Shown: positions 385 to 55,370, counted from the stretch's first letter. The stretch: DNA of 64,000 nucleotides from a virus (IMGVR_UViG_3300025133_000077:10703-74702); one strand, 5' to 3'. A program made the numbers and translations. The notes: generated by a model not told the origin, from the sequence alone.

Positions 385-414
385 AGTGTAAGGGACCCTT
401 GCAGTACAGCACAA
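385..414 (-). promoter_or_regulatory. sigma70-type promoter for the RpoB-like gene
   Basis: TTGTGC (414-409) - 18 nt - TACACT (390-385), upstream of ATG 356. Confidence 0.5.
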
Positions 415-438
415 TCACGGAGGATGCCACGGCATAAG
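410..438 (+). promoter_or_regulatory. putative phage promoter CRCAA-N15-CGGCATAAG, copy 1
   Basis: CACAA (410-414), 15 nt, CGGCATAAG (430-438); same motif and spacing at 5650-5678; heads a plus-strand operon. Confidence 0.6.
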
Positions 439-474
439 CAGAGTAGAGGAACACCCCTCGTAGGAGACAAAGCA

Positions 475-606
475 GTGGCCAACGATCAGCAGAAGAAGAA
501 GACGCCCCCCAAGGTCGAGAAGCGCTCCAGCGTGCGCCGCTTCTCGAACAACGTGAAGAAGGCGGTGGGCGGTCACCGCCGTCCCGCCCCCAAGAAGAAG
601 GAGTAG
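475..606 (+). CDS. small Lys/Arg-rich protein (43 aa)
   Basis: GTG 475 with SD AGGAG at 462-466; high-GC3 codons. Confidence 0.6.
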   Translation: MANDQQKKKTPPKVEKRSSVRRFSNNVKKAVGGHRRPAPKKKE

Positions 607-610
607 GACC

Positions 611-733
611 GTGAGGTGGTTGCTCCTGTCGGGCTTCTACTTCGGCTTCCTCCTCGCACTCCACGACGGCATCCAGCTCGAGAAGATTCGAGTGCGTGCC
701 CACATCGCGAAGGACGAGGACGAGGAGAAGTAG
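611..733 (+). CDS. small membrane-anchored protein (40 aa)
   Basis: Hand translation MRWLLLSGFYFGFLLALHDGIQLEKIRVRAHIAKDEDEEK; stop abuts ATG 734. Confidence 0.5.
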   Translation: MRWLLLSGFYFGFLLALHDGIQLEKIRVRAHIAKDEDEEK

Positions 734-1048
734 ATGGCCTACTGCCCCCTGTTGCCGGGGCACTGCCGGAACGCCACCGACTGTGGCGGGTGCAGCACGT
801 TCTCCGACGTGCTGCACCCGTACGCAGACGAGCTGTTCTGGGTCTGTCCCGATTGTCTTACGCCCCGTCGAGAGCCCAGCGGCTTCACCCTCCTGGGCCA
901 CTACCAGGAGATCGACTGCGACATCTGCAGCAAGCTCTCCAACCTGTGCCAAGCGGCTCTGCCTCCCGACGTACTGACGGCAGCCAAGTGGTTCGAGATG
1001 CTCCAGCGCATCCTGGAGAAGGCGACCGAGGAGAACGAAGATGGATGA
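734..1048 (+). CDS. Cys-rich putative zinc-binding protein
   Basis: CGGC, CPDC and CDIC motifs; coupled to neighbours. Confidence 0.7.
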   Translation: MAYCPLLPGHCRNATDCGGCSTFSDVLHPYADELFWVCPDCLTPRREPSGFTLLGHYQEIDCDICSKLSNLCQAALPPDVLTAAKWFEMLQRILEKATEENEDG

Positions 1049-1406
1049 CTGCTGTGCCCAGTGCCAGGAGCAGTTCGAGCTCCGGGAGACCGGCATCCTT
1101 GAGGTCTACGAGGGGGAGGTCGGCTTCAATGACGAGGGGGAGGTCGCCTTCATCCCCGACGACTTCGCCCAGTACATCCACACCAAGTGCGCGTCGCGGT
1201 ACTTCAACCCCGGCGAAGAGGCCGAGGTTCGCAGGGAGATCCGCGAGGAGGTGCTCTTGGATGGAGCCGCCCAGGTGAACGCCTACCTGGGTGGCGTGGA
1301 GAAGATGCGGCAGCGCGAAGAGGAAGAAGAGGAAGTCGCCGAGGAGTGGGTTCGCCCGCCCGCTCGGCGACGCTCCTCTCGTGGGGGGAGGTGGGGAGGA
1401 CGATGA
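1041..1406 (+). CDS. putative zinc-binding protein (CxxC...HxxC)
   Basis: CAQC...HTKC; acidic then Arg/Gly-rich tail; overlaps upstream stop. Confidence 0.7.
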   Translation: MDDCCAQCQEQFELRETGILEVYEGEVGFNDEGEVAFIPDDFAQYIHTKCASRYFNPGEEAEVRREIREEVLLDGAAQVNAYLGGVEKMRQREEEEEEVAEEWVRPPARRRSSRGGRWGGR

Positions 1407-1410
1407 TCCT

Positions 1411-1432
1411 GGCGGGCCCGAAGGGGCCCGTC
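1411..1432. terminator. hairpin between convergent genes
   Basis: GGCGGGCCC-GAAG-GGGCCCGTC between stops at 1406 (+) and 1440 (-); no U-tract. Confidence 0.55.
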
Positions 1433-1439
1433 GCTTAGC

Positions 1440-3446
1440 TCACACCAGCGCCCTGCCGGGGTCTCGCCGGGGCGGCTTCTGCGACGGGAGCGGAGACTGC
1501 TGCGCGTCGAGCGGGTCCCGGGTCTCCTTGGAGCCCTGCATGATCTGCAAGACCAGCGAGTAGAAGTGCGGCTGCGTCGACTTCATCTTCTGCATCGCCG
1601 CGTAGGCGTCCGGCGGCTTCGTCTTGAGCAGCTTCCGCAGCTCGTTCGCCGTCCGCTTGGCCACGTAGAAGACGTCCTGACCCGTGCCCGGGTCAGCCGT
1701 CAGCTGAGAGGACGCCTCCTGCGGGACGCCTGTGACCGGAGAGGACTGCCCGTTCTCCGGGTACAGCTTGGCCCCTGCCGGGCCCTCGACGGGGCCGCTG
1801 CCGCCCTCCTGGCCACCCTCCTGGCCAGGGCCGAGCTGCATGGCTCCGCCCCCGCCCACGAGGTCGGACTGGGCCGCCTGCATGTAGAGCTGCATGACCT
1901 GCTGAGCCTCGCCCTGGCCGACGGCCGCGGAGACCTGGGCCCGTCGCTGGTCCTCGGCCTGCTTCCTCGACTCGGAGCTGAGCAGCAGCCGCTCGGTCTC
2001 GTAGTCCTCGTTGAGTTCGCGCAGGAAGGTGTGGTCGGAGATCTTGTTGGCCTGGTTGGCCTGGAAGTAGATCATCGTGCGCTGCAGGTCGTCCGCCATC
2101 TTGAAGCGGCGGAACTTCTTGCCCACGCGGGGCCAGCCCAACCACGCGCCGATGGAGTCGAACACCCAGTCCGTGAGGCCCTGGATGTCGGCGCGGTAGT
2201 TGATGAACTCGTTCTCTAGGTTCCGCATGGAGACCTGCGTGCCGGAGTAGCCGAGGCCGCCGAAGATAAACTCCTGCGGGACGTGGAGGCCGGCGACGAT
2301 GTTCTCTGCCCAGACGCGGTACTCCTGGTGGAGCACCATCGCTCGGCCCTGGCCGCCGACCATCTGGTGTCCCACGGGGAGGGGCAGGATCGGGATGTAG
2401 TTGGGGTCCCGCCGCCACCGCTCGATCTCCTCCTCCATCTGGCTCTTCCAGCCGGTGAGGGGCATCGTGGTGTACGGGTCGCTGGTCCCGGAGCCGGGCT
2501 GCGGGAAGATCATGCGCAGCGGCACGATGTGCTCGCGGGCGATGGCTTCCTGGCCCTTCTTGAGGATCTGCAGGTAGTAGGAGTCCTTGAGCACCGGCAG
2601 GATGCGGGACAGACCCCAGCCCTTGTCGTTCCCGTTGCCCGAGATGGACGGGCGCCGCATGTGGAAGAGCTGGCCCGGGGCGAACCGGAGGCCGGTCTTC
2701 TTGCGGGCGGCCTCGACGAAGACGTTGGGGATCTCCTCCTGAAGGTGGTTCCTTCCGATCATCAGCCGCGCCCGCGTGCGGGGGCTCATCTCGTAGTAGT
2801 ACCTGCAGTGCCCGGTCTCCTCGTTCACATCGATGGCGATGCGCTCGGGGTCCCACCGGACGAGCCCGATCTTGTACGGGCTCCGCTGCCAGACATCGAG
2901 GGGCTTGGCGTTGCCCACCTTCCTGCACTTGGGGCAGGTGAGGCGGTAGTTCAGCTCCCGCCACTTGTAGTGGGGCCGCAGCTTCTTCGCCGGCGCCTGG
3001 TACTTGCAGTGGTTGCACTGCAGGAACTTCACGAAGGGGTAGTTGATCGAGGTGAAGGAGTTGCCGTAGCACTGGTAGTCCAGGCCGGTCTCCACCTGGA
3101 AGCTGCGGAACTTCAGGATCTGGTCCTTGAGGTACTTGTACTTCCGCGCCACCGCCTCGTGCTTGCTCTCGAACACCAGGTCGGTGATCGGGTACGAGGC
3201 CATCTTGTAGATGACCGCGTTCACCAGCGGGTTGGTGAAGAAGTAGTAGCGGCACCAGCGGAACAGCTTCTTCTGCGACGAGGGCAGGTAGGTGTGCGCT
3301 CCGTCGAAGAAGGGGCTGGGGTACGGCACGCCGGCCCGGCCCGAGGCCCCGAAGAAGCCCGAGCGCAGGTTGGCGAAGCCGCTGCCTCCGGCGGTGCCGC
3401 CGCTCACCCCGTACGTGGGCAGCCCGAAGTCGAATCCCTCAGCCAT
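1440..3446 (-). CDS. portal protein with zinc-ribbon insertion
   Basis: Portal-like pattern (NPLVNAVIYKMASYP, DYQCYGNSF, LFHMRR..GWGLSRI, IVAGLHVPQEFIFGG); CNHC...CPKC insertion; low-complexity C-terminus. Confidence 0.8.
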   Translation of the reverse strand: MAEGFDFGLPTYGVSGGTAGGSGFANLRSGFFGASGRAGVPYPSPFFDGAHTYLPSSQKKLFRWCRYYFFTNPLVNAVIYKMASYPITDLVFESKHEAVARKYKYLKDQILKFRSFQVETGLDYQCYGNSFTSINYPFVKFLQCNHCKYQAPAKKLRPHYKWRELNYRLTCPKCRKVGNAKPLDVWQRSPYKIGLVRWDPERIAIDVNEETGHCRYYYEMSPRTRARLMIGRNHLQEEIPNVFVEAARKKTGLRFAPGQLFHMRRPSISGNGNDKGWGLSRILPVLKDSYYLQILKKGQEAIAREHIVPLRMIFPQPGSGTSDPYTTMPLTGWKSQMEEEIERWRRDPNYIPILPLPVGHQMVGGQGRAMVLHQEYRVWAENIVAGLHVPQEFIFGGLGYSGTQVSMRNLENEFINYRADIQGLTDWVFDSIGAWLGWPRVGKKFRRFKMADDLQRTMIYFQANQANKISDHTFLRELNEDYETERLLLSSESRKQAEDQRRAQVSAAVGQGEAQQVMQLYMQAAQSDLVGGGGAMQLGPGQEGGQEGGSGPVEGPAGAKLYPENGQSSPVTGVPQEASSQLTADPGTGQDVFYVAKRTANELRKLLKTKPPDAYAAMQKMKSTQPHFYSLVLQIMQGSKETRDPLDAQQSPLPSQKPPRRDPGRALV

Positions 3447-4316
3447 CTACGCCGCCTTGCTCTGGAGGAGCCACGAGAACTCTCGGGCCTGCACAGCTTC
3501 CTGCTGGCGCCGGTGCACCATGTAGTTGTGGGCCACGAGCAGCTTGCCGCAGACGACATCCTCGCGCACATCGTCGCTCAGGTCTGCCCCTTCCCCACCG
3601 TGCACCTGCCTCCACCGGGCGGCGACCGGGCGGGGGTCGTTCTTGTAGAAGGTCGAGACGTTGCGGCCTACCTCGTCCGGGATGCCCCGCGCCGGCCTGC
3701 CGTTCACCGTCTTCTCGTCCATGTCCGGGTTGAACCGCCCCACGCAGACGTCGCACCGCCCATCCTCGAGGTCGTCGTCGTCCTCGTTGCCGCAGTCCCC
3801 ACAGCGGTAGGTGGGCTCGGCCACCACGCGCTGCGCGACGGCGAGGGGGCCCGGCAGGAACCAGACGCCGCGCTCCAGAGCCGAGGCCGCCATGAACCGG
3901 ACCACCTCCTCCTGGTACGGCTCCTTGCGGATGTCCGAGACCATGTCGACGGCCGCCATCATCTGGGCAACTGTCGGTTGCTGAAGTGTCATGAAGTCGG
4001 GGGTGTTGTTGTTCAGCGCCTGCACCAGAGGGGCAAACACCGACCACGACGACCAGAAGCCGTTGGCCAGCAGCAGGTTGCGGATCGCCTGGATCTTGTT
4101 CTTGTTCAGCGCGCTGACCGTCACCCTGTGGGGACGGGAGTAGTGCTTCTGGAAGAGCTCCGAGAAGTCCTGCTCGATCTCGTACCAGAGCACATCGGAG
4201 TCCCACTCCAGCCAGTCCGACTTGAACACCGCGAAGAGGAGCCCGGCCAACACCGCCGGGTGCGCGTCGTGGTAGCCGAAGAAGAGGGCCGGCGACTCAG
4301 GCGCTGATGGTTCCAC
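3447..4316 (-). CDS. hypothetical head-module protein with CxxC...CxxC zinc ribbon (289 aa)
   Basis: GTG 4316 with SD AGGAG; CGDC...CDVC; stop abuts portal start. Confidence 0.7.
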   Translation of the reverse strand: MEPSAPESPALFFGYHDAHPAVLAGLLFAVFKSDWLEWDSDVLWYEIEQDFSELFQKHYSRPHRVTVSALNKNKIQAIRNLLLANGFWSSWSVFAPLVQALNNNTPDFMTLQQPTVAQMMAAVDMVSDIRKEPYQEEVVRFMAASALERGVWFLPGPLAVAQRVVAEPTYRCGDCGNEDDDDLEDGRCDVCVGRFNPDMDEKTVNGRPARGIPDEVGRNVSTFYKNDPRPVAARWRQVHGGEGADLSDDVREDVVCGKLLVAHNYMVHRRQQEAVQAREFSWLLQSKAA

Positions 4317-5598
4317 GGGCGTGGCTCCTGCTGGCCGCCAGCCGCGCCACGACCACCTGCTTGGGGTAGGGCAGGGACTTGAAGACGGTGACGGGCTTCG
4401 CCATGAACTGGTCCGCCGCGTCATCGCCGAGCGCATCCCGGACACGGCCGAGGTCGTTGCGGGAGAGCCTCAGCAGGTCCGCCCCCGTCACCTTGTCGAT
4501 CCCCTTCATCCAGTGGTAGCCGGCGTCCTCGGACGCTGTCTTCTCGGAGAGGGCTGCGCGGTACGGGTCGGGCAGGGAGCGGTCCCACTCCTGGCTGAGC
4601 CCGTAGTGCTCGTCGAACTGCGTCAGCGCCTTGCCGAAGGCGTCGGGACCCTGGTGCGTGGCGACCGTGGCCAGCTTCATCAGGATGGCGCCGCCCCGCT
4701 CGTCGACCCGGCCCGCCCTGGCGTTGAGGTGGAGGACGAAGCTCTCGTTGAGCTGCTCGCCCCCGTACTGCGCCACCTTCTCGGTGACCTCGACCTCGAA
4801 GTGGTCGGCGGCGAGCTTGACGTTGCGGCAGTACTCCCGCCGGTCAGCGGGGTGGAAGCGGTCCCCGTACTCGTCGAAGTAGGCCATCGCCTGCTTGACC
4901 TGCTCTTCGGTGTCAAGCGGGTAGCGGTCGTCGAGGGCCGCCGTCTTCCTCCGGGAGTGTCGATCCAGTGCGGCGTACGCTCCGTAGCCTGCCCCGATGC
5001 CAAGAAGTGCGCCGCCCGCCCCCTTCGCTGCGCCACCGGCGGTGCGCTTCAGGGTCTCGGTCTTCGTCGCCCCCTGTTGCCGCGCCTTGCGGAAGCCGGC
5101 AGCCGCGCCGACCGTGCCTGCCCCAAGAGGGATGCCGGCCACGATGCCGGCTTCGATGAGGGTGAACGCCTGCTTCTCCCAGGCCCGGATGTCGACGACG
5201 GCCTCGGCGATGCCGGCCACCTTCATCAGCATGCCGTCGCGGGAGCCGATCTCGGGCACAGCCGAGGCGACCTTGGCGACGAGCCCGGGGACGGTGTAGC
5301 CGCCCTCGTCCATCGTCTCCATCAGCTTGATGCCGGCGACCACGGCGGCCGTCTTCGGCATCTGGTCCCAGGTCCGCTCGAGGTACTGGGCACTGAGCCA
5401 CGCCACCTCGGGCGAGGTGCAGGCGAACTTGCGGAGCTTGCCCTCGCTGCTGAGCATGACGACTCCGAAGTCGGAGTCGGGGTAGCGCGACAGCTCATCG
5501 CGCTCGGGCAGTGACGCGGTCGCCACCTTCTCGGGGAGTGAGACCGACGCTGCCTTGAGCAGCCCCGGTCCCAGATCGTGCGGGTCGACAGCGAGCAT
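4297..5598 (-). CDS. putative head/internal virion protein rich in K-x-A motifs, with glycine-zipper insert (433 aa)
   Basis: ATG 5598 with SD GGAGG; 14 of 25 Lys have Ala at +2; RYPLDT..QV..A..YF segment; next to portal. Confidence 0.7.
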   Translation of the reverse strand: MLAVDPHDLGPGLLKAASVSLPEKVATASLPERDELSRYPDSDFGVVMLSSEGKLRKFACTSPEVAWLSAQYLERTWDQMPKTAAVVAGIKLMETMDEGGYTVPGLVAKVASAVPEIGSRDGMLMKVAGIAEAVVDIRAWEKQAFTLIEAGIVAGIPLGAGTVGAAAGFRKARQQGATKTETLKRTAGGAAKGAGGALLGIGAGYGAYAALDRHSRRKTAALDDRYPLDTEEQVKQAMAYFDEYGDRFHPADRREYCRNVKLAADHFEVEVTEKVAQYGGEQLNESFVLHLNARAGRVDERGGAILMKLATVATHQGPDAFGKALTQFDEHYGLSQEWDRSLPDPYRAALSEKTASEDAGYHWMKGIDKVTGADLLRLSRNDLGRVRDALGDDAADQFMAKPVTVFKSLPYPKQVVVARLAASRSHARGTISA

Positions 5599-5619
5599 GG
5601 GGCCTCCGATGACGGCTCG

Positions 5620-5649
5620 ATGATGTCTGCGGAGACGTCCTGATGTCAA
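5620..5649 (-). promoter_or_regulatory. sigma70-type promoter for the head/portal operon
   Basis: TTGACA (5649-5644) - 18 nt - CATCAT (5625-5620). Confidence 0.55.
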
Positions 5650-5678
5650 CGCAAGAACCCCGAGGATCTCGGCATAAG
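5650..5678 (+). promoter_or_regulatory. putative phage promoter CRCAA-N15-CGGCATAAG, copy 2
   Basis: CGCAA (5650-5654), 15 nt, CGGCATAAG (5670-5678); heads the 18-kb replication operon. Confidence 0.6.
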
Positions 5679-5710
5679 GACAGTGCCTACCAACAACAGG
5701 AGCCTATCAG

Positions 5711-6082
5711 ATGGCGATCAGCCGGGTCGGTGCTATCCCCGACCCTCCCTGCTTCGGCAAGCCCAGTTTTTACAACGAACGAGACGAGGACTGCCGCACC
5801 TGTCACGCGAAGATCAGGTGCAAGGTCCAGGTCCGACAGAAGAAGAAGGGAGTCCCTGCCAAGAGCAAGAACTCCCGAGTCGACAGATCCTCCGTGGTGG
5901 AGGAAGATGACGCCCCCACTTTCAGGACCAGGAAGGAGCGCTCGACCACCTGGTTCGGCGCCCTCAAGCACAACTCCTTCATCCGGCTGTGTTCCACGTT
6001 CTTCCGCGAGCTGGCGTTCGGGGTGGAGCAGATTCCTTTGGAGCCGTACTCGGACCAGGAGGCGGAGGAGATCGATGACTGA
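5711..6082 (+). CDS. Cys-cluster protein (PPCFGK...CxxC...C)
   Basis: SD AGGAG upstream; first gene of the operon; overlaps next start. Confidence 0.7.
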   Translation: MAISRVGAIPDPPCFGKPSFYNERDEDCRTCHAKIRCKVQVRQKKKGVPAKSKNSRVDRSSVVEEDDAPTFRTRKERSTTWFGALKHNSFIRLCSTFFRELAFGVEQIPLEPYSDQEAEEIDD

Positions 6083-6533
6083 CACCATCAACATCGGGGG
6101 GCTCATCCGGGCTGCTCGAAAGACGCGCTTCGGCAGCATGAGGAAGGCCGCAACGGCCATCGTCATCACGGATGCTCGTGGCACCCGCTCCCTGTCGGGA
6201 GAGGGGCTGCGGAAGATCGAGACGGGCCTCTCCCTCCCGTCTGCGAACGTGCTTAGCGCCCTGATCACCGGGTGGGAGCTCGGCAAGAAGGAGGCCGACC
6301 AGCTGCGGTACGCCGTGCATGCGGCGCACGAACGCAAGGCCGGCTACGAGCCCCGGCAGAAGGAGGACCTCGGAGAGAACCGAGAGGCGGTCATCGCCTC
6401 TGCCGTCGGCGACATCCTCAGCAAGAGCAAGATCCTCGTCGAGGGGATGGTCGAAGAGGAGGATGACCAGGAAGCCTTCCTGGAGGAGCTGAAGACGATC
6501 GCGGACAAGACGCTGCGAGAGTACTTCCGGTGA
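6075..6533 (+). CDS. XRE-family helix-turn-helix protein
   Basis: IGGLIRAAR...LSGEGLRKIETG.SLPS pattern; ATG 6075 with SD GGAGGAG. Confidence 0.75.
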   Translation: MTDTINIGGLIRAARKTRFGSMRKAATAIVITDARGTRSLSGEGLRKIETGLSLPSANVLSALITGWELGKKEADQLRYAVHAAHERKAGYEPRQKEDLGENREAVIASAVGDILSKSKILVEGMVEEEDDQEAFLEELKTIADKTLREYFR

Positions 6534-7864
6534 CCCTGTACACCTTCTGCAGGAGGGACCCGGGCAGCGCCTACATCGACCGGAATCTCTGGCTGCCGAA
6601 GGTGCGGCTGGGCCTCCGGCCTATCAAGCAGCGGCTGTCCTTCCGAGTCGCGACCGGCAAGAACCGGGACAAGATCGTCAAGATGTTCGCCTACCGAGAG
6701 GAGGAACATCACCTGGTTGTGCCCCGCAACTTCATGCCTCCCCAAGAGCTGCTCGACCAAGACATCCCCGTCATCGATCTGCGCCCCGCGTCTTACCCTC
6801 GGGTGGTGATGGCGCACTCCATCATCCCCCGGCCTCATCAGGTGGAGCCGCTCGCGAAGCTGGAGAAGATCGGCGACGGCACCCTGAACGTGGGGTGCGG
6901 CCGAGGCAAGACGGTGATGGCGCTGTACGAGGCCGCTCGAGTGGGCGCCCCGACGATGGTCATCTGCCAGAACAGCTCCATCCTCCAGCAGTGGGAGAGG
7001 GAGATCAACGACAAGCTCGACTTCAACGGAGACGTGCGGTGGGTCAAGGGGAAGGGCCTGCCGGGAGACGACACCTCCTTCGCCCTCGCCACCATCCAGT
7101 CCCTCTACGACCGAGCGGGGGAGCTGCCTCGCAGCTTCACGCACAGGTGGGGGACGGTCATCTTCGACGAGGCTCACCACGTCTCGGCCCCGAAGTTCTC
7201 GAAGGCCGCGGACATCTTCCCAGGGAGGAGGCTGGCGCTCACCGCGACGGCGAAGAGGAACGACGGGCTGGAGAAGATCTACCAGTACCACCTCGGCGAC
7301 ATCTTCCACGTGGACCTCACGCAGGACCTGGTGCCGAAGATCATCTTCCTGGAGTTGCCGGGCTTCGAGCCACCGAAGAGCGTGTACGACGACGTCAGCC
7401 TCAAGACCTGGCTGTCCAAGAACCCCGACTACAACGCCATCATCGCCAAGGAGACCCGCGCCGCTTTGAAGAAGGGGCGGACGGTGATGGTGCTCTCACA
7501 TCGAGTCGATCAGCTGCTCGCTCTGGAGAAGCTGGTGCCTGCGGGCAAGGCCATCTACGGGCCCGTCAAGTTGGAGGACCGCGACGAGATCCTCCGCTCC
7601 GCCAACCCCATCTTCGCGTCCATGAACCTCGCCCAGGAAGGGCTTGATCGGCCTCAGCTCGACACCGTGCTGTGTGCCACTCTCTTCAGCAACCCCAACT
7701 CGTTCCAGCAGGTCGCCGGACGAGCTCTCCGAGAGTTCGCAGGGAAGATGGACCCCGTCATCGTCTTCTGCGTCCCCACCATCCGCCGCTGCCGCAACCA
7801 AGCGAAGCGGCTCGCTACCTTCGCCCGCAAAGCGGGCTACCCCGTGGAGTACCACCGAGCATGA
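6530..7864 (+). CDS. superfamily 2 (DEAH) DNA helicase, UvsW/ResIII-like
   Basis: Motifs GCGRGKT, DEAH, TAT, EGLDRP.LD, QVAGRALR. Confidence 0.9.
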   Translation: MTLYTFCRRDPGSAYIDRNLWLPKVRLGLRPIKQRLSFRVATGKNRDKIVKMFAYREEEHHLVVPRNFMPPQELLDQDIPVIDLRPASYPRVVMAHSIIPRPHQVEPLAKLEKIGDGTLNVGCGRGKTVMALYEAARVGAPTMVICQNSSILQQWEREINDKLDFNGDVRWVKGKGLPGDDTSFALATIQSLYDRAGELPRSFTHRWGTVIFDEAHHVSAPKFSKAADIFPGRRLALTATAKRNDGLEKIYQYHLGDIFHVDLTQDLVPKIIFLELPGFEPPKSVYDDVSLKTWLSKNPDYNAIIAKETRAALKKGRTVMVLSHRVDQLLALEKLVPAGKAIYGPVKLEDRDEILRSANPIFASMNLAQEGLDRPQLDTVLCATLFSNPNSFQQVAGRALREFAGKMDPVIVFCVPTIRRCRNQAKRLATFARKAGYPVEYHRA

Positions 7865-8268
7865 GCAACACCAAGAAGAACGTCAGCAAGCTGGCCGTCG
7901 TGATGATGGTCAACCGGACCGCCTGGATCGGCAAGATCTACGACACCGACGAGCCGCCGACCATGATCCGGGACGCATCCATCGCGTTCCTGAACCCGCA
8001 GAAGGGCCCGCAGCCGGACATGATGGCGCTGTACCCCATCCGCATGCCCTACGGGCTCGCCGGCGAGACGCTGAAGCGTCTCCGCCTGAACCCCGTCAAC
8101 GTGGAGTCCTGGGCCTTCGTCGAGGACATGACCGCCCTGGACCAGAAGCAGATCAAGGGCTTCCTCAAGATCCAGAACGAGCGCGAGTCCAACGACGGCG
8201 CCACGGCGGCCGGGATCGTCCTGCCCACCGGACAGGACATGGAGGCCATCCGCCGAGGCCGCCGATGA
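7861..8268 (+). CDS. hypothetical protein (135 aa)
   Basis: ATGA overlaps at both ends; strong GC3 bias. Confidence 0.75.
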   Translation: MSNTKKNVSKLAVVMMVNRTAWIGKIYDTDEPPTMIRDASIAFLNPQKGPQPDMMALYPIRMPYGLAGETLKRLRLNPVNVESWAFVEDMTALDQKQIKGFLKIQNERESNDGATAAGIVLPTGQDMEAIRRGRR

Positions 8269-9011
8269 TTCCGACGCTCAAGGATCTCTTCGAGATCTAC
8301 GTCACCAACGAGTGCGACAAGTGCCCGCGGTTGGTGGAGAGCAGGACCAGCCTCGTGTTCGGTGAGGGGCACCTCGACCCGGACATCGTGGTGGTCGGGG
8401 AGGCTCCGGGGTACTGGGAAGACGACCTGGCTCGCCCCTTCGTGGGTCAGTCAGGCGTCCTCCTGGACTCCTTCCTCGCCTACTTCGGCCGGAAGTCCAA
8501 CTCCTCCCTCTGGGCCGTCGGCGAGTCCGTCTCCAAGGGGAAGGAGCTCTCCGGCGACGTCGCCGACACCGTTCGTGATGCCCTCATCGAGACGGAGAAG
8601 GTGCACTACCTGAACGCCGTGCTCTGCCGGCCGCCGGAGAACGTGGCGCCCAACCGCCTGGAGCTGGAGGCCTGCCGAGAACGGCTCGTCCAGACCATCT
8701 ACCGCCTGGACCCCCTGATCGTGCTGGCGTGCGGCAAGGGGGCCGCCAAGTCCCTGCTCGGGAAGACGCTGAACGTGCAGGACAACCGGGGCCAGGTCTT
8801 CGACCTCGAAATCCCGGGGGTAACTGGCGGCATCAGGTACCCGATGCTCCTGACGTACCACCCCTCTTACGTCAATCGCGTGGGGGACTTCTTGAGCAAG
8901 ACCGGGCCGGGTGTGCAGTTCGCGGAAGACCTCGAACGGCTCTTCACCCTGACCGATGAGACCCGACATCTGACCTGTGGCATGGAGATGCCCGAGAGGA
9001 GGAAGTGGTGA
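8265..9011 (+). CDS. udg: uracil-DNA glycosylase, family 4 (Fe-S)
   Basis: CDKC, VGEAPG..E...RPFVG.SG, LCRPPEN, C, TYHPS. Confidence 0.92.
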   Translation: MIPTLKDLFEIYVTNECDKCPRLVESRTSLVFGEGHLDPDIVVVGEAPGYWEDDLARPFVGQSGVLLDSFLAYFGRKSNSSLWAVGESVSKGKELSGDVADTVRDALIETEKVHYLNAVLCRPPENVAPNRLELEACRERLVQTIYRLDPLIVLACGKGAAKSLLGKTLNVQDNRGQVFDLEIPGVTGGIRYPMLLTYHPSYVNRVGDFLSKTGPGVQFAEDLERLFTLTDETRHLTCGMEMPERRKW

Positions 9012-9475
9012 TCCCGAAGAACGTGGAAGACGTGGACACCAGCGCTGCCGAAGAGGCGGTGCAGGCGTTCGAGGAAGCGGAGGAAGAGTTCAAGGCTCTC
9101 CTCCAGGACATCAAGGACAGCCTGGGAGAGGACTGGTACGAGTACCTCCTCGAGACCATGGACAAGCGGCGGACCCTCTGCACCCGGGCGCGGCAGGCCG
9201 TGCGCGGGGTGAAGACGGGGGTGGGCAACTTCGGCGTCCGCGCCGTCACGAAGAACGCATGGGACCCGGCGGCGGCCGTGGAGCTGGCTCGGGTCCGCGA
9301 CGAGCGGGACGAGCTCATCGACGCCGGGGTGCTGAAGTACTCCTTCGACCACAAGCGCGCGAGCGAGGTCCTCGAGCCGCACGTCATGGCCATCTACAAG
9401 GAGAAGGCGCACAGCACCTACCCCGGCACCACGCAGGTCCTCGGCCCGAAGCCGGACGATGACCTCTTCAAGTAG
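9005..9475 (+). CDS. hypothetical protein
   Basis: Coupled ORF with typical codon bias. Confidence 0.7.
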   Translation: MVIPKNVEDVDTSAAEEAVQAFEEAEEEFKALLQDIKDSLGEDWYEYLLETMDKRRTLCTRARQAVRGVKTGVGNFGVRAVTKNAWDPAAAVELARVRDERDELIDAGVLKYSFDHKRASEVLEPHVMAIYKEKAHSTYPGTTQVLGPKPDDDLFK

Positions 9476-9812
9476 GACGACGCCCCGCATCATGATCCGG
9501 CGCAGCGCTGTGAAATCCGGGATGGCCCCGGAGGACCAGTTCTGCGACGATTTCCAGCCCTCGGAGGAGCACATGGACAAGGCGAAGAAACTGGTGGGCA
9601 ACGGCAAGGCGGAAGTGTCCGTCGGCATGGACATGGGGGAGAAGGACTTCGGCAACGGCTTCGGCGTCTTCGTCTCCGTGAAGCTCACATGCAACCAGGA
9701 CGAGAACTCGATCGATGCGGCGCAGGCCCTCGGCCAGGAGATGGTCAAGAGCTACATCGAGATGCAGCACGGAGAGGCGAAGGACCTGTACCAGTACCTC
9801 GCGGGAACCTGA
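9459..9812 (+). CDS. hypothetical protein (start uncertain: 9459/9492/9522)
   Basis: Coupled ORF with typical codon bias. Confidence 0.65.
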   Translation: MTSSSRTTPRIMIRRSAVKSGMAPEDQFCDDFQPSEEHMDKAKKLVGNGKAEVSVGMDMGEKDFGNGFGVFVSVKLTCNQDENSIDAAQALGQEMVKSYIEMQHGEAKDLYQYLAGT

Positions 9813-10060
9813 TGGGGCTGCCCATCGCCGAGAACGACCTCTTCACCGCCAGCCTGATCAAGCTCGAACTCGAGCGGGCTGACGGAACGGGGGCCGTGTT
9901 CCAGCTGATGTACGAGGTCGAGATCCGCAATCGGAGTACCGGCGTTCACGCCGTGCTCCGTGCGCGGGACCTTCCTCCGGACATCCAGGGGCACCTCCAG
10001 GAACTGCGCGCCATGCTCGAGCAGCACGCCGGCGAGAGGCTCTTTTCAACCGGCACGTAG
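9812..10060 (+). CDS. hypothetical protein (82 aa)
   Basis: TGATG overlap with the upstream stop. Confidence 0.65.
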   Translation: MGLPIAENDLFTASLIKLELERADGTGAVFQLMYEVEIRNRSTGVHAVLRARDLPPDIQGHLQELRAMLEQHAGERLFSTGT

Positions 10061-10068
10061 GAGACGCA

Positions 10069-11499
10069 GTGGCAGCGCTGGAACCCACCCTGATCTCCAA
10101 CATCCTGCGAGACCAGACCCTGAAGCCCGTCATCGAGGCGGGCATCACTGAAGCCGACTTCCAGACCCTCGAGGGGGCTGAGTGGTTCCGGTTCATCTAC
10201 CGACACTTCCGGAACCGATCTACCTACGGGCAGATCCCCAGTACCGGGCAGTTCAAGAGGAGGTTCCGGGGGTTCGACTTCTCTCCCTCCACCGACTCCA
10301 TCGCGTCGCTCTGCCAGGAGCTGCGGGACAACCAGATGGTCCTGGAGGGGGCGGACCTCGCCGACAAGATCCAAGACCTCCTGGACGACGACGACCTGGA
10401 CGACGTGCTGTCCAACCTCTCGGGCTTCCTGCGCAAGTGGACGTCCAAGCGAGCGGACGGAGGTGACCTCGACCTCGCACAGGCCGTCGGCACCCTCAAG
10501 GACCAGTACTACGCCGTGAAGGACGGCGACGGACTGCTGGGCATCCCCTACCCCTGGGAGCCAGTGAACAACGAGACGCTGGGCATGCTCGCCGGGCAGC
10601 TCATCATCATCTACGGCCGGCCGAAGGCGATGAAGACCTGGGTGGCGCTGTACATCGCCGTCTACGCCTACCTGTTCTGTGGGGCGAGGGTGCTGTTCTA
10701 CAGCCGCGAGATGGACCGGGTGCAGATCCTGCGACGTGCTTCCAGCATCGTCGTCGGGCTCGACTACCGGGACATCAAGCGGGCCTCCCTCACCGACGTG
10801 GCAGAGCAGGAACTCTGGGGCGCGATGGAGGAACTCTCCGAAGGAGAGGACCTGGGCAACGGGCAGCGCAGTCGCTTCGTCATCTCGAACGACCGCGGAG
10901 CCAACAACGCCGCGACCGTGGACTTGATCTTCCAGAAGGCGCGGGACTACGAAGTCGACCTCGTGGTCGTCGACGCGGTCTACAAGCTCCAGGACGGGAG
11001 AACGAGCAAGAGGGACGCCGACTGGAAGACCCAGATGCACGTGCTCCAGGACATCAAGGACGGTGCCGTGGACATGGGCATCCCCGCCATCGCGGTCACC
11101 CAGGCCAACCGCTCCGCTGCCAAGAACAACGTGAAGCAGGTGGACACCTCTGAGGTGGCGTTCACCGATGCAGCGGGCATGGAGTGCGACGGCATGTTCC
11201 GGGTCATCAAGGGGACCGACCCAGAGACAGGAGAGAACGAGCTGGCCCTGGTGTGGGCGGCGACTCGAGACGAGGAGCTCGACGCCATCCTCATCAACGG
11301 CCAGCCCGGCTACAACTTCCGACTCAAGCGGGAGCACATCACTCTCGACGAGCTGGTGGAGCGCAAAGCGCAGGAGGACAAGGACCTGAGTGCGGGAGAC
11401 CCCGCACCCAAGAAGACAGGCAGAGCAGCTGGTCGTCGGAGCGCGCGCGGCAGGTCCGCCGTGTCGCTGGCACGCCAGGGAGCCAAGAGGAAGAAGTGA
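10069..11499 (+). CDS. dnaB: DnaB-like (SF4) replicative helicase
   Basis: Variant Walker A GRPKAMKT, FYSREM, Walker B LVVVDAVY, TQANR. Confidence 0.88.
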   Translation: MAALEPTLISNILRDQTLKPVIEAGITEADFQTLEGAEWFRFIYRHFRNRSTYGQIPSTGQFKRRFRGFDFSPSTDSIASLCQELRDNQMVLEGADLADKIQDLLDDDDLDDVLSNLSGFLRKWTSKRADGGDLDLAQAVGTLKDQYYAVKDGDGLLGIPYPWEPVNNETLGMLAGQLIIIYGRPKAMKTWVALYIAVYAYLFCGARVLFYSREMDRVQILRRASSIVVGLDYRDIKRASLTDVAEQELWGAMEELSEGEDLGNGQRSRFVISNDRGANNAATVDLIFQKARDYEVDLVVVDAVYKLQDGRTSKRDADWKTQMHVLQDIKDGAVDMGIPAIAVTQANRSAAKNNVKQVDTSEVAFTDAAGMECDGMFRVIKGTDPETGENELALVWAATRDEELDAILINGQPGYNFRLKREHITLDELVERKAQEDKDLSAGDPAPKKTGRAAGRRSARGRSAVSLARQGAKRKK

Positions 11500-13834: not shown

Positions 13835-13846
13835 TCAACCTGAGCC

Positions 13847-13872
13847 TGGGGCGGCCCTTCGGGGCCGCCCCA
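13847..13872 (+). terminator. 11-bp hairpin with C(UUCG)G tetraloop
   Basis: TGGGGCGGCCC-TTCG-GGGCCGCCCCA between the SSB-like gene and polA; no U-tract. Confidence 0.65.
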
Positions 13873-13885
13873 TTGGAGGACCTCG

Positions 13886-15901: not shown

Positions 15902-15937
15902 AAAATAACTCATTTCGGATTGGGGTATGCTGGCGCC

Positions 15938-16507: not shown

Positions 16508-16836
16508 CCGAGCCCCTCATCAAGTGGCAGAGCTGGGAGGTCGTCGGTGTGGAGGTCTTCCTCTGGGCCGACGACCTCCCGGAACACACCAACCCGCTCA
16601 CGGACCTCCCCACCATCACCGAGGAGGAGGGCATCAAGGAGGGCGACTACGTCATCGTCGGGAGCATCCTCGGGTGGGTCAAGGCGAGGATCTACAGCGG
16701 GGAGGGGAGCCTGTACGCCAAGAGCGACACCGGCTCCATGATGTACTTCCTGGAGTTCGCCAAGGACGCTCGAAAGTGCTGGGTCTGCATCGGCTCCGGC
16801 AACCTCGCGGCCATCAAGAAGCTGGAGCTGAAGTGA
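16504..16836 (+). CDS. hypothetical protein (110 aa)
   Basis: ATGA overlap; codon bias. Confidence 0.7.
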   Translation: MTEPLIKWQSWEVVGVEVFLWADDLPEHTNPLTDLPTITEEEGIKEGDYVIVGSILGWVKARIYSGEGSLYAKSDTGSMMYFLEFAKDARKCWVCIGSGNLAAIKKLELK

Positions 16837-17126: not shown

Positions 17127-17128
17127 TC

Positions 17129-17302: not shown

Positions 17303-17360
17303 ACCTCCTCTCCTGAGGAGCCAGAGACGGGCCTGTGACGCAGGCTCGAAGGAACCCCCT

Positions 17361-23809: not shown

Positions 23810-23820
23810 CAGCCCGTCCA

Positions 23821-51138: not shown

Positions 51139-51155
51139 GCGCGCATCCTACAAGA

Positions 51156-51188
51156 AGGCCCCCGTCGCGCCTAGCACGACGGGGGCCT
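51156..51188 (-). terminator. intrinsic terminator-like hairpin
   Basis: AGGCCCCCGTCG...CGACGGGGGCCT, followed by TCTTGT on the minus strand. Confidence 0.65.
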
Positions 51189-51211
51189 CCTGTTCAGGCC
51201 TCAGCGGGGTA

Positions 51212-51882
51212 CTAGACCACGCCGATGAACTGCGGCATCCAGACGACCTTGGAGGTGCCAGCGCCGGTGCTGTGGGTGTAGCCCACGCGCCAGATCTGGT
51301 CTTCCGAGGTGGACGGGGCCGTCTCGCTGACGCCGCCGGACACCCAGTAGACCACGGCACCCTCGGTGCTCAGCGTCTCGGAGACCTCGTAGACCTCGCC
51401 CGGCGTGCAGTACACCGAGTCGGTGTCCGCCTCGGCCAGGAGTCCCGCGGGGAACTTGTGGCTGGACGGGTTCGCCGACACGAGCGCGCCGCCGACGTAG
51501 GTCACCATGGTCTTGGCGGCCACGGTGCCGATGGTCTTGCCGTGCGCGGCGCGGCTCTCCTTGACGCCGACCGACTCGATGAAGAGCGTGCCGGACGTCG
51601 CGGTGGCCAGGGTCAGGTCGCCGCTGGTGGCGGTGATGCTGATGTTCCCCGAGTTGGCGATCGTGCCCAGCGCCGAGAAGGAGCTGACGTCGCTCTCGAC
51701 GAAGTTGTACGTGATCGTGTCGTCGCCGCTGTGGGCGCTGGACATCGCCGTGCCGCCCGCGCGGCCTCCTGAAGGCGCGATCCCTCTGCCTGCTCGTTCT
51801 CGAGCGCGGCGGAGATCTTCTTCTTGAACTTGACCTTCTTCTTGAGGCGAGTACGGCGGGGGTCGAGCTTCTTGGCGGTCAT
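51212..51882 (-). CDS. putative capsid decoration/cement-like protein, apparently frameshifted near 51760-51790
   Basis: Lys-rich N-terminal frame from ATG 51882 (has SD) and 177-aa C-terminal frame 51212-51745 (no well-spaced SD) differ by -1. Confidence 0.5.
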
Positions 51883-52534: not shown

Positions 52535-52540
52535 GACGAA

Positions 52541-52570: not shown

Positions 52571-52576
52571 CCGCTA

Positions 52577-52999
52577 CTACGAGAAGCGGGGCTCATCCAC
52601 CGGGGAGATCCGTGCCACCTCGAACTGGTCCGGGGCCAGGGAGATGAGATCCATGAGGTCCGCCTCTGGGGCGTCCGGGATCGTGACCTTCCGGGAGAAG
52701 CCCGTCGACGTGACCGTGACCTGCACCTCGACACCCCGCAGCAGGGCGATCTCCGCGAATCCGTCAGCGTTCGTCTCCATGGAGTCCCGCATCCCAGACA
52801 ACATCGCCTTGCCCCCCAACAGCGCCAACCGAGGATTGGCCCACAGGTTGGCGAAGGAGACGACCTGGCCGACCACCGGAGCGCCCGACATGCTGAACAG
52901 GCGCACCCAGACCCGGCACTTGTCCCCGGGGGCCGCGGAGCGGAAGGTCCTGACCCCCACCAACGGCGGAGGCAGGAGGAAGCCCTGGTAGGTGGCCAC
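52577..52999 (-). CDS. transthyretin-like virion protein, paralogous to a domain of 48226-49437
   Basis: CRVW......G.PV.G...ETNADGFAEI.LLRG versus CRCWG...G.AV.G...TDKNGYFEV.LPRG. Confidence 0.65.
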   Translation of the reverse strand: MATYQGFLLPPPLVGVRTFRSAAPGDKCRVWVRLFSMSGAPVVGQVVSFANLWANPRLALLGGKAMLSGMRDSMETNADGFAEIALLRGVEVQVTVTSTGFSRKVTIPDAPEADLMDLISLAPDQFEVARISPVDEPRFS

Positions 53000-54052
53000 T
53001 CAGGTCTCCCGCACGCAGAAGAAGTCGGCTCCATCCGGGAAGGCGCGGTAGGTGTCCGCGGTGACGACGACGTCGTCGAGGGCGGCGAGGGGGCCGGTGA
53101 AGGGGCGGACGATCCGGGGGAGTTGTCCCTTGATGTGCTGCCGGCCCGCCGTGAGGTCGTAGAAGACGTTCGGGGCGAGGGCGACGTGGCCGTAGTCCTC
53201 CGTGCTGAACTCCGACAGACCGACCGCGTCGGCCCAGGACTTCCTCGCCACGGACGACGAGACGTAGGCGTCGGTGTGGTGCAGCGCCACCGCGGCGGAC
53301 GGGAAGGTCCCCGCGGAGCCACCCCACAGGATCATCGGCTGAGGGTCGACCGCCACGATGGCCAGGGCGTCGTAGTCCTCGACCAGCGCCGAGTCGAGTT
53401 CGAGCCTGCGGTTGGGGATGTCCACCGAGTCGATCTGCACCCGCTCCACGTTGGCCGGGCCGCTCGTGACGTCCTGGTTGACCACCCAGAGCTGTTGTCC
53501 CGGCTCCACGTCGGTGAAGTCGGTGCCGGCGGCGAAGAGCAGCGTCGTGGTGCCCGTCTGGTTGGTGCCCGTCGCCGGCCCCGCCAGGCGGCCGTAGAAG
53601 TTGCGCTGGGAGGGCACGATCGGCGACGCCGCGCCGAAGTAGCCCTTGTTGTAGGTGGTGCCTCCGTCGATGTCGGCGACGATGGCGACGCCATCGGCGT
53701 CGGCCACGATCCACCCCTGCATGGCGCCGTTCACCAGCTGCACGCAGGTGTTCCCGGCGACGTCGCCGACGCCGTTGTACCCGGTGCCGGGGGTGCCGAC
53801 GTCCCAGTACGAGTAGGCACGGAAGTGGACCTGCTCGCTGCCGGAGTCGTGGGTGGCTCGAAGCCAGAGGGCCAGCTCGCCGCTCTCTCCCACGCTGTAG
53901 TAGACGCGGTCCTGCGCTCCCACGGCGGCGCTGAGTTCCTCCACCAGCGTCCACCCGGCGTTGAGCAGGCGCTGGTGAAGCCCCTGCACCCCGTTGTCCA
54001 GGAGGTCGTCGATGCTGAGGAAGGCGTAGTTCAGCGACGCCGAGAGAGCCAT
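53000..54052 (-). CDS. virion structural protein
   Basis: Acidic, beta-rich; L..AGWTL N-terminus; strong codon bias. Confidence 0.7.
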   Translation of the reverse strand: MALSASLNYAFLSIDDLLDNGVQGLHQRLLNAGWTLVEELSAAVGAQDRVYYSVGESGELALWLRATHDSGSEQVHFRAYSYWDVGTPGTGYNGVGDVAGNTCVQLVNGAMQGWIVADADGVAIVADIDGGTTYNKGYFGAASPIVPSQRNFYGRLAGPATGTNQTGTTTLLFAAGTDFTDVEPGQQLWVVNQDVTSGPANVERVQIDSVDIPNRRLELDSALVEDYDALAIVAVDPQPMILWGGSAGTFPSAAVALHHTDAYVSSSVARKSWADAVGLSEFSTEDYGHVALAPNVFYDLTAGRQHIKGQLPRIVRPFTGPLAALDDVVVTADTYRAFPDGADFFCVRET

Positions 54053-54056
54053 CGGA

Positions 54057-54371
54057 TCAGCCTCCCACGACCGAGGGCCGGGTCCTCAGCACCAGGGTCT
54101 TGCGGGTCATGTCGTAGATGTAGAGCCGCGCCTTGCCGACCGCGGGCTCGGCCGTGATGCCGTGGGCGGCGGCCTTGGAGATGGCGGCCTCCTGAGCTTC
54201 GATCAGCTCGCCGCTGAGGTCCTGCATCTGCTGCTGGAGCCCGGCCATGCGCTCGCGGCACAGCTCCATCTTCAGGGCGATGTTCTCCACTCCGAGGTGA
54301 TCGCCCCCGGTCAGGGGGATCGCGGGAGGCAGTTCGGGGATCTGGGCGGGGTCGCTCATGCTCTGGCTCAC
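54057..54371 (-). CDS. small coiled-coil protein
   Basis: Heptad-like segment; coupled. Confidence 0.65.
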   Translation of the reverse strand: MSQSMSDPAQIPELPPAIPLTGGDHLGVENIALKMELCRERMAGLQQQMQDLSGELIEAQEAAISKAAAHGITAEPAVGKARLYIYDMTRKTLVLRTRPSVVGG

Positions 54372-54580
54372 TCTCGTGTCAGGGAGGACAGCTCATCTCG
54401 AAGGAAGATCTCCGCCGTCTCCGCGTTCTTGCGCGTCAGTGTACTCGATCCGGTCATCCCTTCCAGCACAGAGCCCAGGTAGTCGACCTCGTTCTTGATC
54501 CGCTTCTTCTCCTTGTCGATCCACTCCCGCGTGGCGTCTTCCAGGTCGTTGAGAGCGGCTTCCTGGCGGTCAGAAGGCAT
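54368..54580 (-). CDS. small helical protein
   Basis: Coupled to the sigma gene and the next gene. Confidence 0.65.
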   Translation of the reverse strand: MPSDRQEAALNDLEDATREWIDKEKKRIKNEVDYLGSVLEGMTGSSTLTRKNAETAEIFLRDELSSLTRE

Positions 54581-55370
54581 CGCGATACAGCCGGATCTTC
54601 TCGTACACCCGCGCCTTGATGCGGGAGACGGTCGGCGCGGAGACGCCCAGGTCCTTGGCGATCTCGCCGGTACCCTTCTTCGGCTTGCCGTTCAGGCCCA
54701 GGGAGTGCTCCAGGACGTAGTTCTCCCGCTGGTCGAGCTCGTGCTTGATGAGGGAGAGCACCTCGCGGTCCCGGCTCGGCATGTAGAAGGTCGGGTCCGA
54801 CATGCCCTCGGCCTCGAAGCCGGAGGCGATGTAGTCCATGCGCTGCTCGGCCTCCATGCGCTGCACCTCGGCGAGAGGCCAGCCCAGCCGGGCGGCCATC
54901 TCCATCGTGGTCGGGTCGCGCATCAACTCGTCCTTCGCCTCCTCCTTCGCCGTCTTGTACTCGGTGATCTTGTCGATGCGCTTCTCGGGCATGTAGCCCA
55001 CGTTCTGGTACTTCTTGATGAAGCGGCCGGACTTGCGGACCTGGCCGTGCACGAAGGTCCCCAGCGCGGCCGGCTTCCCTGTGGTCTTGCCCAGCTTGGT
55101 CGGATCGTACTTCCGCAGCGCCGTCAGGAACTGCTTGTTCACCTCGGCCTCGATCACAGCCGGTGGGACGGGGACCTTGTTCTGGTACAGCCGGACCCGG
55201 TTGTTGAGCACCCCGCGGAACTGCTTGAAGAGGGGGTCGAGCTTCTCGGGATGCTCCCCCGAGTCCTTCCACTCCTGCCACAGCTCCAAGTCCTTCTGCT
55301 GACGTGCCTTCAGCTTCGGGTTGTGCTTGGCGGCCATCGCCACCTTGGCGAACTGGTCCTTGGCGCTCAT
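54570..55370 (-). CDS. sigma70-family group-3 (FliA/WhiG/SigF-like) sigma factor
   Basis: Region 2 AL.KYDP.K...LGTFV; region 3 LMRDPT..EMA.RLGW; region 4 LDQRE..VL....GLNG......EIAKDLGVS..TVSRI. Confidence 0.88.
   Translation of the reverse strand: MSAKDQFAKVAMAAKHNPKLKARQQKDLELWQEWKDSGEHPEKLDPLFKQFRGVLNNRVRLYQNKVPVPPAVIEAEVNKQFLTALRKYDPTKLGKTTGKPAALGTFVHGQVRKSGRFIKKYQNVGYMPEKRIDKITEYKTAKEEAKDELMRDPTTMEMAARLGWPLAEVQRMEAEQRMDYIASGFEAEGMSDPTFYMPSRDREVLSLIKHELDQRENYVLEHSLGLNGKPKKGTGEIAKDLGVSAPTVSRIKARVYEKIRLYRDAF

Follow-up and report, generated by a model that had tools for sequence, protein, structure and literature searches.

We analysed a stretch of viral DNA of 64,000 nucleotides (nt) (IMGVR_UViG_3300025133_000077:10703-74702; hereafter the window), that is, bases 10703-74702 of one 74,702-bp viral contig with a G+C content of 66.6%. 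It comes from a phage of a large, uncultured lineage, the only member of which to have been studied is Salmonella phage Arash. On the strand that carries its structural genes, the window encodes the start of a single-chain RNA polymerase (RNAP) in which beta and beta' are fused, and a divergent sigma-70-family factor, the virion-module sigma; the opposite strand carries two copies of a lineage-wide promoter, denoted class A. The reading that we favor, with a probability of roughly 0.5, is that polymerase and sigma are packaged as a holoenzyme that would fire the class A promoters after injection. The elements on which the argument turns are the following (lengths in amino acids, aa).

Positions 1-356, minus strand: N-terminus (first 118 codons) of the phage RNAP; the whole gene, of 2,099 aa, is L001 4759-11058.
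Positions 54570-55370, minus strand: virion-module sigma, 266 aa, no cysteine; begins MSAKDQFAKVAMAAK.
Positions 411-446, plus strand: class A promoter 1, with -35-like ACAAT (411-415), 15 nt, GG (431-432), CATAAG (433-438) and a predicted start at ~445.
Positions 5651-5686, plus strand: class A promoter 2, with GCAAG (5651-5655), 15 nt, GG CATAAG (5671-5678) and TG near the predicted start.

The polymerase combines, in one frame, the Pfam domains Rpb2_6 (5e-61), Rpb2_3 and Rpb1 domains 1-5, and contains both double-psi beta-barrels and the catalytic motifs of a bacterial-type beta plus beta' RNAP; the NADFDGD motif is intact (residues 1382-1388) and invariant in 24 homologues. At least 899 homologues of ~2,050-2,100 aa were found in public data and metagenomes. 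Many homologues of the fused RNAP are longer, 2,400-2,970 aa, and contain LAGLIDADG, Hom_end or intein-splicing domains (P0027, P0029, P0034, P0045, P0055, P0062 and others); judging from these domains, inteins appear to have invaded the gene repeatedly. The polymerase contains six cysteines, the sigma none.

The sigma gene was recognized through Pfam Sigma70_r3 (30 bits, cut-off 25.3), Sigma70_r4 over residues 214-260 (20.4 bits, below the cut-off of 24.1) and PHROG 351 (1.6e-14), and a profile of 17 homologues matched, among PDB chains, RpoS (7e-12), RpoD (3e-11) and SigA from region 2.2 to region 4.2, with values between 7e-12 and 1e-9, and FliA at only 1e-4; regions 3 and 4 are accordingly present by Pfam, by PHROG and by the PDB profile, which extends through region 4.2. 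Region 2 was not detected by Pfam Sigma70_r2; in the same profile, residues 43-258 pair with SigA and residues 73-258 with RpoS/RpoD, and in the phage sigma the melting aromatics YATWW of this region are replaced by TFVHGQ. All NCBIfam sigma subfamily models remained far under their cut-offs (28-30 vs 190-234 bits). The sequence-only reading had labelled the gene a group-3 sigma, but this label (group 3 or sigma-28, FliA) is ruled out by the FliA score compared with that of RpoS, by the NCBIfam scores and by the promoter consensus, which is GNAA-N15-GGYATAAG and not TAAA-N15-GCCGATAA; the protein appears to be a deeply divergent member of the sigma-70 family and not a recognizable group-3 factor. 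It is an orthologue of Arash gp10. A word search gave the 17 homologues and an alignment-based search 57 loci in IMG/VR, where a single-sequence search with the sigma gave no match.

Both genes are located among virion genes, next to the following features.

Positions 1440-3446, minus strand: portal, 668 aa, 31% identical to Arash portal gp204 (E 2e-75) and 63% identical to the G002 homologue.
Positions 55367-56734, minus strand: basic protein, 455 aa, with glycine-zipper stretches and with ATGA coupling of its translation to that of sigma.
Positions 56731-60066, minus strand: virion-type cell-wall hydrolase, 1,111 aa, with Pfam Phage_lysozyme (1.3e-19) at residues 349-476.

The RNAP gene adjoins the portal gene and the sigma gene lies behind the hydrolase, both on the structural strand, an arrangement that is collinear in G001-G003 and Arash and places the two genes in late, structural modules. 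The hydrolase is detectable in 20 of the 57 sigma loci and in all 20 is encoded upstream of sigma and on its strand, as is gp8 in Arash. No promoter of its own was found for sigma, and its ATG overlaps the TGA of the 455-aa open reading frame as ATGA. Open reading frames, Pfam and PHROG 351 thus bear out the earlier observation of an RpoB-like gene and an ATGA-coupled sigma gene on the structural strand, the RpoB-like gene being the start of the fused RNAP. The neighbor of sigma, with several Gly/Ala zipper stretches and poor conservation even in G001/G002, is plausible as an internal virion protein, as had been proposed.

The sequence-only reading had suggested examining the co-occurrence of sigma and RNAP in relatives and modelling the sigma on the phage core, and both results favor a pairing of the two. 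Sigma and the fused RNAP co-occur in 10 of 10 cases: all five sigma-bearing records carry the RNAP, and all five complete genomes with the fused RNAP carry exactly one sigma orthologue. A search with the sigma profile of five records from a more distant group with a split RNAP gave no match, only one of these records being complete. A second sigma factor is detectable in three of eight complete genomes, with differing types (G003, ECF-like, 157921-158433; G004; Arash gp196, RpoS-like), and was not detectable in the other five. Because these second sigmas are sporadic, the virion-module sigma is the only lineage-conserved candidate reader of the only conserved private promoter. In the complex model, sigma residues 39-48 and 67-82 contact RNAP residues 1196-1226 with an interaction prediction score from aligned errors (ipSAE) of 0.61, the best of three controls scoring 0.00; at least 45% of contacts are shared between runs, and the predicted local distance difference test (pLDDT) of the partner is 70. 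The threshold applied is reached by 58 of 80 solved complexes and by 2 of 110 mismatched pairs. The modelled contact is predicted to correspond to the canonical interface between sigma region 2 and the beta' clamp helices; passing the threshold may reflect retained likeness to solved holoenzymes, as distinct from binding.

These data support pairing of the sigma with the phage's own RNAP, as far as phyletic pattern and modelling allow. They also bear on the possibility that the sigma redirects the host core while the phage polymerase works without any sigma. Such redirection is the role usually assumed for phage sigma homologues (PMC7824862, PMC13282480), but the strict co-occurrence with the fused RNAP, the lack of an orthologue in the five split-RNAP records (where, with a single complete record, the empty result shows nothing), the modelled contact on the phage clamp helices and the lack of any other sigma-like partner for the phage core in five of eight complete genomes make us regard it as highly unlikely.

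The second line of evidence concerns the promoters in front of the plus-strand genes. Exact CGGCATAAG occurs only twice, at 430 and 5670, in both cases on the plus strand and in the two divergent gaps that head the following operons.

Positions 476-1406, plus strand: short operon of four small genes, for a basic 43-aa peptide, a 40-aa membrane peptide and proteins of 104 and 121 aa.
Positions 5711-24102, plus strand: replication/recombination operon of 18 kb, identified by Pfam and collinear in G001-G003.

When one mismatch is allowed, the count of CGGCATAAG is at chance, so the case for the motif rests on the relatives. Gibbs sampling of the RNAP-upstream regions of 38 relatives recovered GG(T/C)ATAAGA de novo, and the aligned sites consist of G(C/A)AA(G/C), 15 nt, GG, (C/T)ATAAG, ~4 nt and TG. 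Class A is defined here as this lineage-wide promoter, G(C/A)AA-N15-GG(C/T)ATAAG, and its matrix was built without the contig under study. The matrix finds exactly two sites in the window: promoter 1 (17.5 bits with the matrix from relatives only), for which 29 of the 38 relatives have homologous sites, and promoter 2 (26.5 bits), which is the top match in the contig and is conserved at the nucleotide level in G002; it reveals no further strong site inside the 5711-24102 operon or inside the structural block. The geometry is sigma-70-like: 17 bp separate the -35 element from a -10 hexamer, position -14 is G, as is typical of extended -10 promoters, position -11 is A, and the likely start is a pyrimidine-purine pair; the departure from sigma-70 is an invariant G at -7 in place of T. 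Hence, of the earlier statement that the plus-strand operons start with a distinct, sigma28-like motif, the distinctness stands, with the exact motif at both places, and the likeness to sigma28 does not.

Across the lineage, class A follows a strand rule. In the 38 RNAP-upstream regions, ATAAG points away from the RNAP in 36 instances and towards it in 4, where composition predicts 17; a matrix scan of 41 RNAP loci gave 43 hits on the strand opposite to RNAP and 3 on its own. The complete genome G003 contains 33 hits above 13 bits, compared with 2.8 in shuffled sequences, which are located in small-gene and replication regions. In Arash there are 21 hits, compared with 2.95 in shuffles, all of them on the strand of metabolic, tRNA and replication genes and none (0/21) on that of terminase, sigma, portal, RNAP and capsid. 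To judge from these sequences, class A is a phage-specific promoter that heads non-structural genes and is all but absent from the strand that carries RNAP, portal or sigma. It recurs in phages whose G+C content ranges from 48% to 69%, and this persistence points to a phage-encoded reader. One conserved gene preceded by class A sites encodes a 670-aa protein, G003:128447-130459 (minus strand) and Arash gp141c (81161-83167), at 40% identity; gp141c is abundant (836 spectra) in the over-inclusive particle preparation described below.

The same comparison bears on the proposal that the sigma is an ordinary late factor which directs the phage or the host polymerase to the structural genes, with ATAAG being read by something else. 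The position of the sigma gene among late genes is in line with this, as is the general experience that phage sigmas are usually middle or late factors, and the late strand of Arash does carry a separate motif, a (C)TAAAATA box ~25-35 nt before the start codons of gp2, gp39, gp185, gp188, gp204, gp212, gp216, gp218 and gp241 (L167-L170). This box recalls the T4 late promoter TATAAATA and in many cases lies immediately next to a class A -10 element in reverse complement (CTTATACC). However, late-strand motifs vary by sublineage (TAAAATA in Arash, TTGACA-N18-TAnnnT in the phage studied here) and class A is constant, so it is the late promoters that differ, whereas the sigma is conserved; the one conserved private promoter, class A, avoids structural genes; and a factor encoded only inside a late operon could not start its own expression. 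We therefore consider the late-factor proposal distinctly unlikely.

For packaging, the argument is by analogy with Arash, which is the only member of the lineage with virion proteomics (PMC10585845). Mass spectrometry coupled to liquid chromatography (LC-MS) of purified Arash particles detected RNAP beta (gp206) more than any other protein, with 128 peptides and 3,516 spectra, followed among the proteins of interest by beta' (gp216, 1,210 spectra), the helicase gp217 (1,148 spectra) and the sigma gp10, with 100% coverage, 24 peptides and 467 spectra; the second Arash sigma, gp196, is absent from the published table (PMC10585845). In our arithmetic on gene lengths, which is semi-quantitative, gp206, gp216, gp217 and gp10 all have ~2.0-2.4 spectra per residue, the portal ~1.5, and reductase, kinase and ligase 0.6-0.9. 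By extension, polymerase and sigma would be packaged in the phage studied here as well. The Arash paper contains no promoter analysis and only speculates on early transcription (PMC10585845). A literature search found neither a mechanistic paper on a packaged sigma factor nor transcript data for members of the lineage.

The sequence-only reading had also pointed to a K-x-A motif shared by the N-terminal extension of the sigma and the head proteins. As a proteome-wide code K-x-A is rejected, given 106 occurrences against 100 expected (ratio 1.06); the sigma as a whole has 3 against 2.6, and no common N-terminal leader was found among the minus-strand proteins. What survives of the claim, weakly, is a hydrophobic-K-x-A-A-x-K stretch, which 14 of the 17 sigma homologues have at a distance of 7-16 residues from their first residue. 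Arash gp10 lacks it: its sequence opens with the conserved core, and the virion mass spectrometry covered it in full. The stretch is real, and any role as a signal is putative. Of the window proteins, the ~433-aa product of 4297-5598 (minus strand) contains 14 K-x-A against 3.7 expected. From their Gly/Ala-zipper and basic character, this protein and the product of 55367-56734 (minus strand) may be membrane-inserting ejection proteins or scaffold-like proteins.

The promoters on the minus strand were considered next to these data, the candidates being as follows.

Positions 5620-5649, minus strand: class B sigma-70-like promoter of the portal operon, TTGACA-N18-CATCAT, 10/12 match to consensus.
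Positions 385-414, minus strand: weak sigma-70-like promoter facing RNAP, TTGTGC (414-409), N18, TACACT (390-385).

A consensus scan of positions 1-20000 gave one sigma-70-like site, 5649->5620, where 1.3 are expected by chance in 20 kb, and the weight of this site comes from its being kept, with N18, at the homologous place in six relatives: as TTGACG-N18-CATCAT in G002, as TTGACA-N18-TAGTAT in G003 and with the same design in L089, L099, L112 and L113. The site on the RNAP side is kept only in the closest relative, L089 (TTGTGC-N18-TATCAT), and not in more distant ones, and the consensus scan found no sigma-70-like sites in the 40-kb structural block (24001-64000). The earlier description of structural-strand units as having sigma70-type promoters consequently applies to the portal operon, is weak for RNAP and fails for the 40-kb block. 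As a general class of late promoters, the pattern TTGAC-N18-YAnnnT was rejected: it is at chance in G000, G002, G003 and Arash and is present in only 6 of 38 RNAP-upstream regions. On inspection of the intergenic gaps of G003 no shared late motif was seen. Upstream of minus-strand genes in G003 there is a conserved hairpin of ~40 nt (ACGCACTTCGGCTAC ... GTAGCCGAAGTGCGTCAG; L075, L078, L080, at ~32,830, 85,040 and 130,600), not seen in the window, which might function in termination, processing or regulation.

Several points weigh against the packaged holoenzyme. The sigma-70-like promoters that precede RNAP and portal could allow the host enzyme to make the polymerase early, as in T7. Of the 272 Arash proteins, 116 are listed for the particle preparation, ribonucleotide reductases among them; it was over-inclusive, with a carry-over of abundant soluble proteins that its authors acknowledge (PMC10585845). 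The subclade of L015, L018, L019, L022, L030 and L032 has a good class A site at a gene junction ~1.6 kb upstream of sigma, on the strand of sigma itself, and may thus express sigma from the very promoter class assigned to it, and not exclusively late. It is from the phyletic pattern only that we infer the reading of class A by the virion-module sigma. A second sigma or another factor may sit in the unseen 60% of the genome. No RNA run was listed as containing window positions 1-6500.

The first three of these points also favor a T7-like order without packaging, in which the host RNAP with its primary sigma reads the sigma-70-like promoters that face RNAP (414->385) and the portal operon (5649->5620) and thereby makes the phage polymerase, sigma is produced by read-through or from an unseen promoter, and the phage holoenzyme so formed then reads the ATAAG promoters, which serve middle genes. 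However, the sigma gene is ~50 kb away, deep in the structural block and with no promoter of either class nearby, and under that order portal and tail genes would be expressed first; moreover, the normalized counts of RNAP, sigma and helicase in Arash exceed that of the portal, the second sigma is not in the table, and the sigma-70-like pattern is not enriched genome-wide. On balance, this order appears unlikely.

Under the packaged-holoenzyme reading, the polymerase and the sigma would be made together with the particle proteins, packed into the virion and brought into the cell with the DNA. There the sigma would dock on the clamp helices of the phage core, and the resulting holoenzyme would start transcription at class A promoters, which in the window would drive the operon of small genes that starts at 476 and the 18-kb replication operon that starts at 5711; other promoters would serve the genes for the polymerase, the portal and the structural proteins. 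At the portal gap the class B -35 element lies 1 nt from that of class A, and at the RNAP gap the sigma-70-like site overlaps the class A -35. Because a sigma-70-like -35 abuts or overlaps the class A -35 in both divergent gaps, the two promoters may exclude each other and act as a switch. The more specific version, in which a complete holoenzyme (single-chain core plus sigma) is packed and injected and fires ~20-40 GG(C/T)ATAAG promoters, with the -35-overlapping divergent pairs as an early-to-late switch, strikes us as tentative, slightly short of an even chance. The sequence-only reading is thus partly confirmed in its observations and partly supported in its interpretation, which was a reasonable inference from real features.

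All these results apply to part of a genome. CheckV estimates the completeness of the contig at 40% and that of its nearest relatives, contigs of 96.8 kb and 105.9 kb, at 51% and 56%; complete relatives span 178-210 kb, the genes of the contig run in the same order as those of G001, G002 and G003, the last of which is complete, and proteins identical to the sigma and the polymerase are on record on a 188,377-bp contig. The window therefore represents about 40% of a marine phage genome of about 190 kb, and the earlier phrases "both plus-strand operons" and "all replication genes" apply to a fragment. A complete genome in which the minus-strand block wraps around from RNAP to the structural genes is ruled out by the CheckV values (40-56% for this and the nearest contigs) and by the collinearity with complete relatives of 181-191 kb. 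The DNA runs that contain the window sequence are marine metagenomes only, one of which may be the source sample.

The remaining features complete the picture of the window.

Positions 3447-5598, minus strand: two head-module genes, for proteins of 332 aa and ~433 aa (Gly/Ala-rich), collinear in G001-G003.
Positions 24128-63986, minus strand: virion-structural block, with giant proteins of 1,838, 1,568 and 2,140 aa, the 1,111-aa lysozyme-domain protein and others.

Matches in the structural block include PHROG 6, baseplate wedge (7e-14, the 2,140-aa protein), PHROG 7 and Pfam Phage_lysozyme (1e-19). By Pfam, the replication operon encodes an SF2 helicase, a DnaB-like helicase, a family A DNA polymerase, an HNH endonuclease, a RecA-like ATPase, a PNK-type phosphatase, a RusA-like nuclease and others; the basic and membrane peptides of the 476-1406 operon are kept in L089. 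The two head-module proteins belong to no Pfam, PHROG or NCBIfam family, and searches of these three collections with the 455-, 350-, 332-, 177- and 373-aa proteins and the 670-aa protein of G003 gave no family either. The 177-aa gene (51212-51745) has the top third-position G+C of the structural block (0.98), and directly 3' of it, at 51139-51211 (minus strand), there is a strong hairpin followed by TTCTTGT (GGCCCCCGTCG...CGACGGGGGCC); from these features, the gene probably has a terminator of its own and encodes a structural protein that is made at a very high level. Beyond the left edge of the window, 3' of RNAP on the same strand and in overlapping frames, lies a gene for a 1,100-aa polyvalent protein (L001:1467-4769, minus strand, 5.9 kb left of the window) with InPase pyrophosphatase (2e-39), GNAT and SET domains, then a staphylococcal-type nuclease (L001:1111-1488) and finally, reaching the edge of the contig, a 372-aa protein. 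Polyvalent proteins of the pyrophosphatase/GNAT/SET class are reportedly predicted, from comparative genomics, to be injected.

How does this system compare with known ones? Phage N4 uses a virion RNAP for its early genes and the host sigma-70 holoenzyme for its late genes. The scheme proposed here would resemble it in that an injected polymerase made late reads early promoters, and sigma-70-like promoters precede some late-strand genes here too; the N4 virion enzyme differs, being a single-subunit, T7-like domain within a 3,500-aa protein that reads DNA hairpins and needs no sigma, and N4 has a second, middle polymerase. Phages phiKZ and AR9 have two-barrel polymerases related to beta/beta', one set of which is packaged for early, host-independent transcription (PMC7598289, PMC13282480), but with 4-5 subunits, none of them of the sigma-70 family, strong divergence and two separate polymerases, in contrast to the single bacterial-like core with a recognizable sigma described here. 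In the crAss-like phage phi14:2, gp66 is a two-barrel polymerase of one chain, which the phage packages and injects (10.1101/2020.03.07.982082); its homology to beta/beta' is reportedly barely detectable and it is not known to have a sigma partner, whereas the polymerase described here matches Pfam at up to 5e-61. The mReC system comprises tailed phages from metagenomes; their beta and beta' subunits are of bacterial type and fall outside the cellular clades. At least one IMG sample number from the mReC paper recurs among the distant matches found here. That paper, however, is confined to phylogeny, without the words sigma or virion, and describes T4-like capsids; the contigs that can be linked to it match the RNAP studied here at only ~25% identity.

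The closest parallel is Arash (OQ632216; PMC10585845), with orthologous RNAP (31% identity), sigma (28%) and portal (31%), the sigma gp10 located after the virion hydrolase gp8, the RNAP beside the portal gp204, and the same GGTATAAG promoter class confined to the non-structural strand. Arash differs in that its polymerase is split between two genes, gp206 and gp216 (1,525 and 606 aa), where the present phage has one 2,099-aa chain, in its second, RpoS-like sigma gp196 and the TAAAATA motif before late genes, in the lack of the K-x-A-A stretch in gp10 and in its G+C content (53% vs 66.6%). We see an even chance that the system described here operates in the manner of the N4 and phiKZ virion polymerases, with a bacterial-like core and a dedicated sigma. 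The earlier interpretation as a reversal of the usual logic does not hold in this respect: the scheme is rather the N4/phiKZ strategy with a different enzyme.

According to reviews, phage multisubunit polymerases come without a sigma homologue, and phage sigmas capture the host enzyme (PMC7824862, PMC13282480). The combination of a bacterial-like core with its own sigma, the core being always accompanied by sigma in 10 relatives, is thus one that phages are said not to have. The sequence by itself reveals the promoter grammar and, given that Arash is cultured on Salmonella Typhimurium ATCC 14028, the model is experimentally accessible. If the model is true, the virion-module sigma would become the first known case of a sigma factor carried inside virus particles. 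If the enzyme is packaged, the lineage would have arrived independently at early transcription without the host, as the fourth to do so besides N4, phiKZ and crAss, and would provide a natural, minimal and orthogonal set of sigma, core and promoter.

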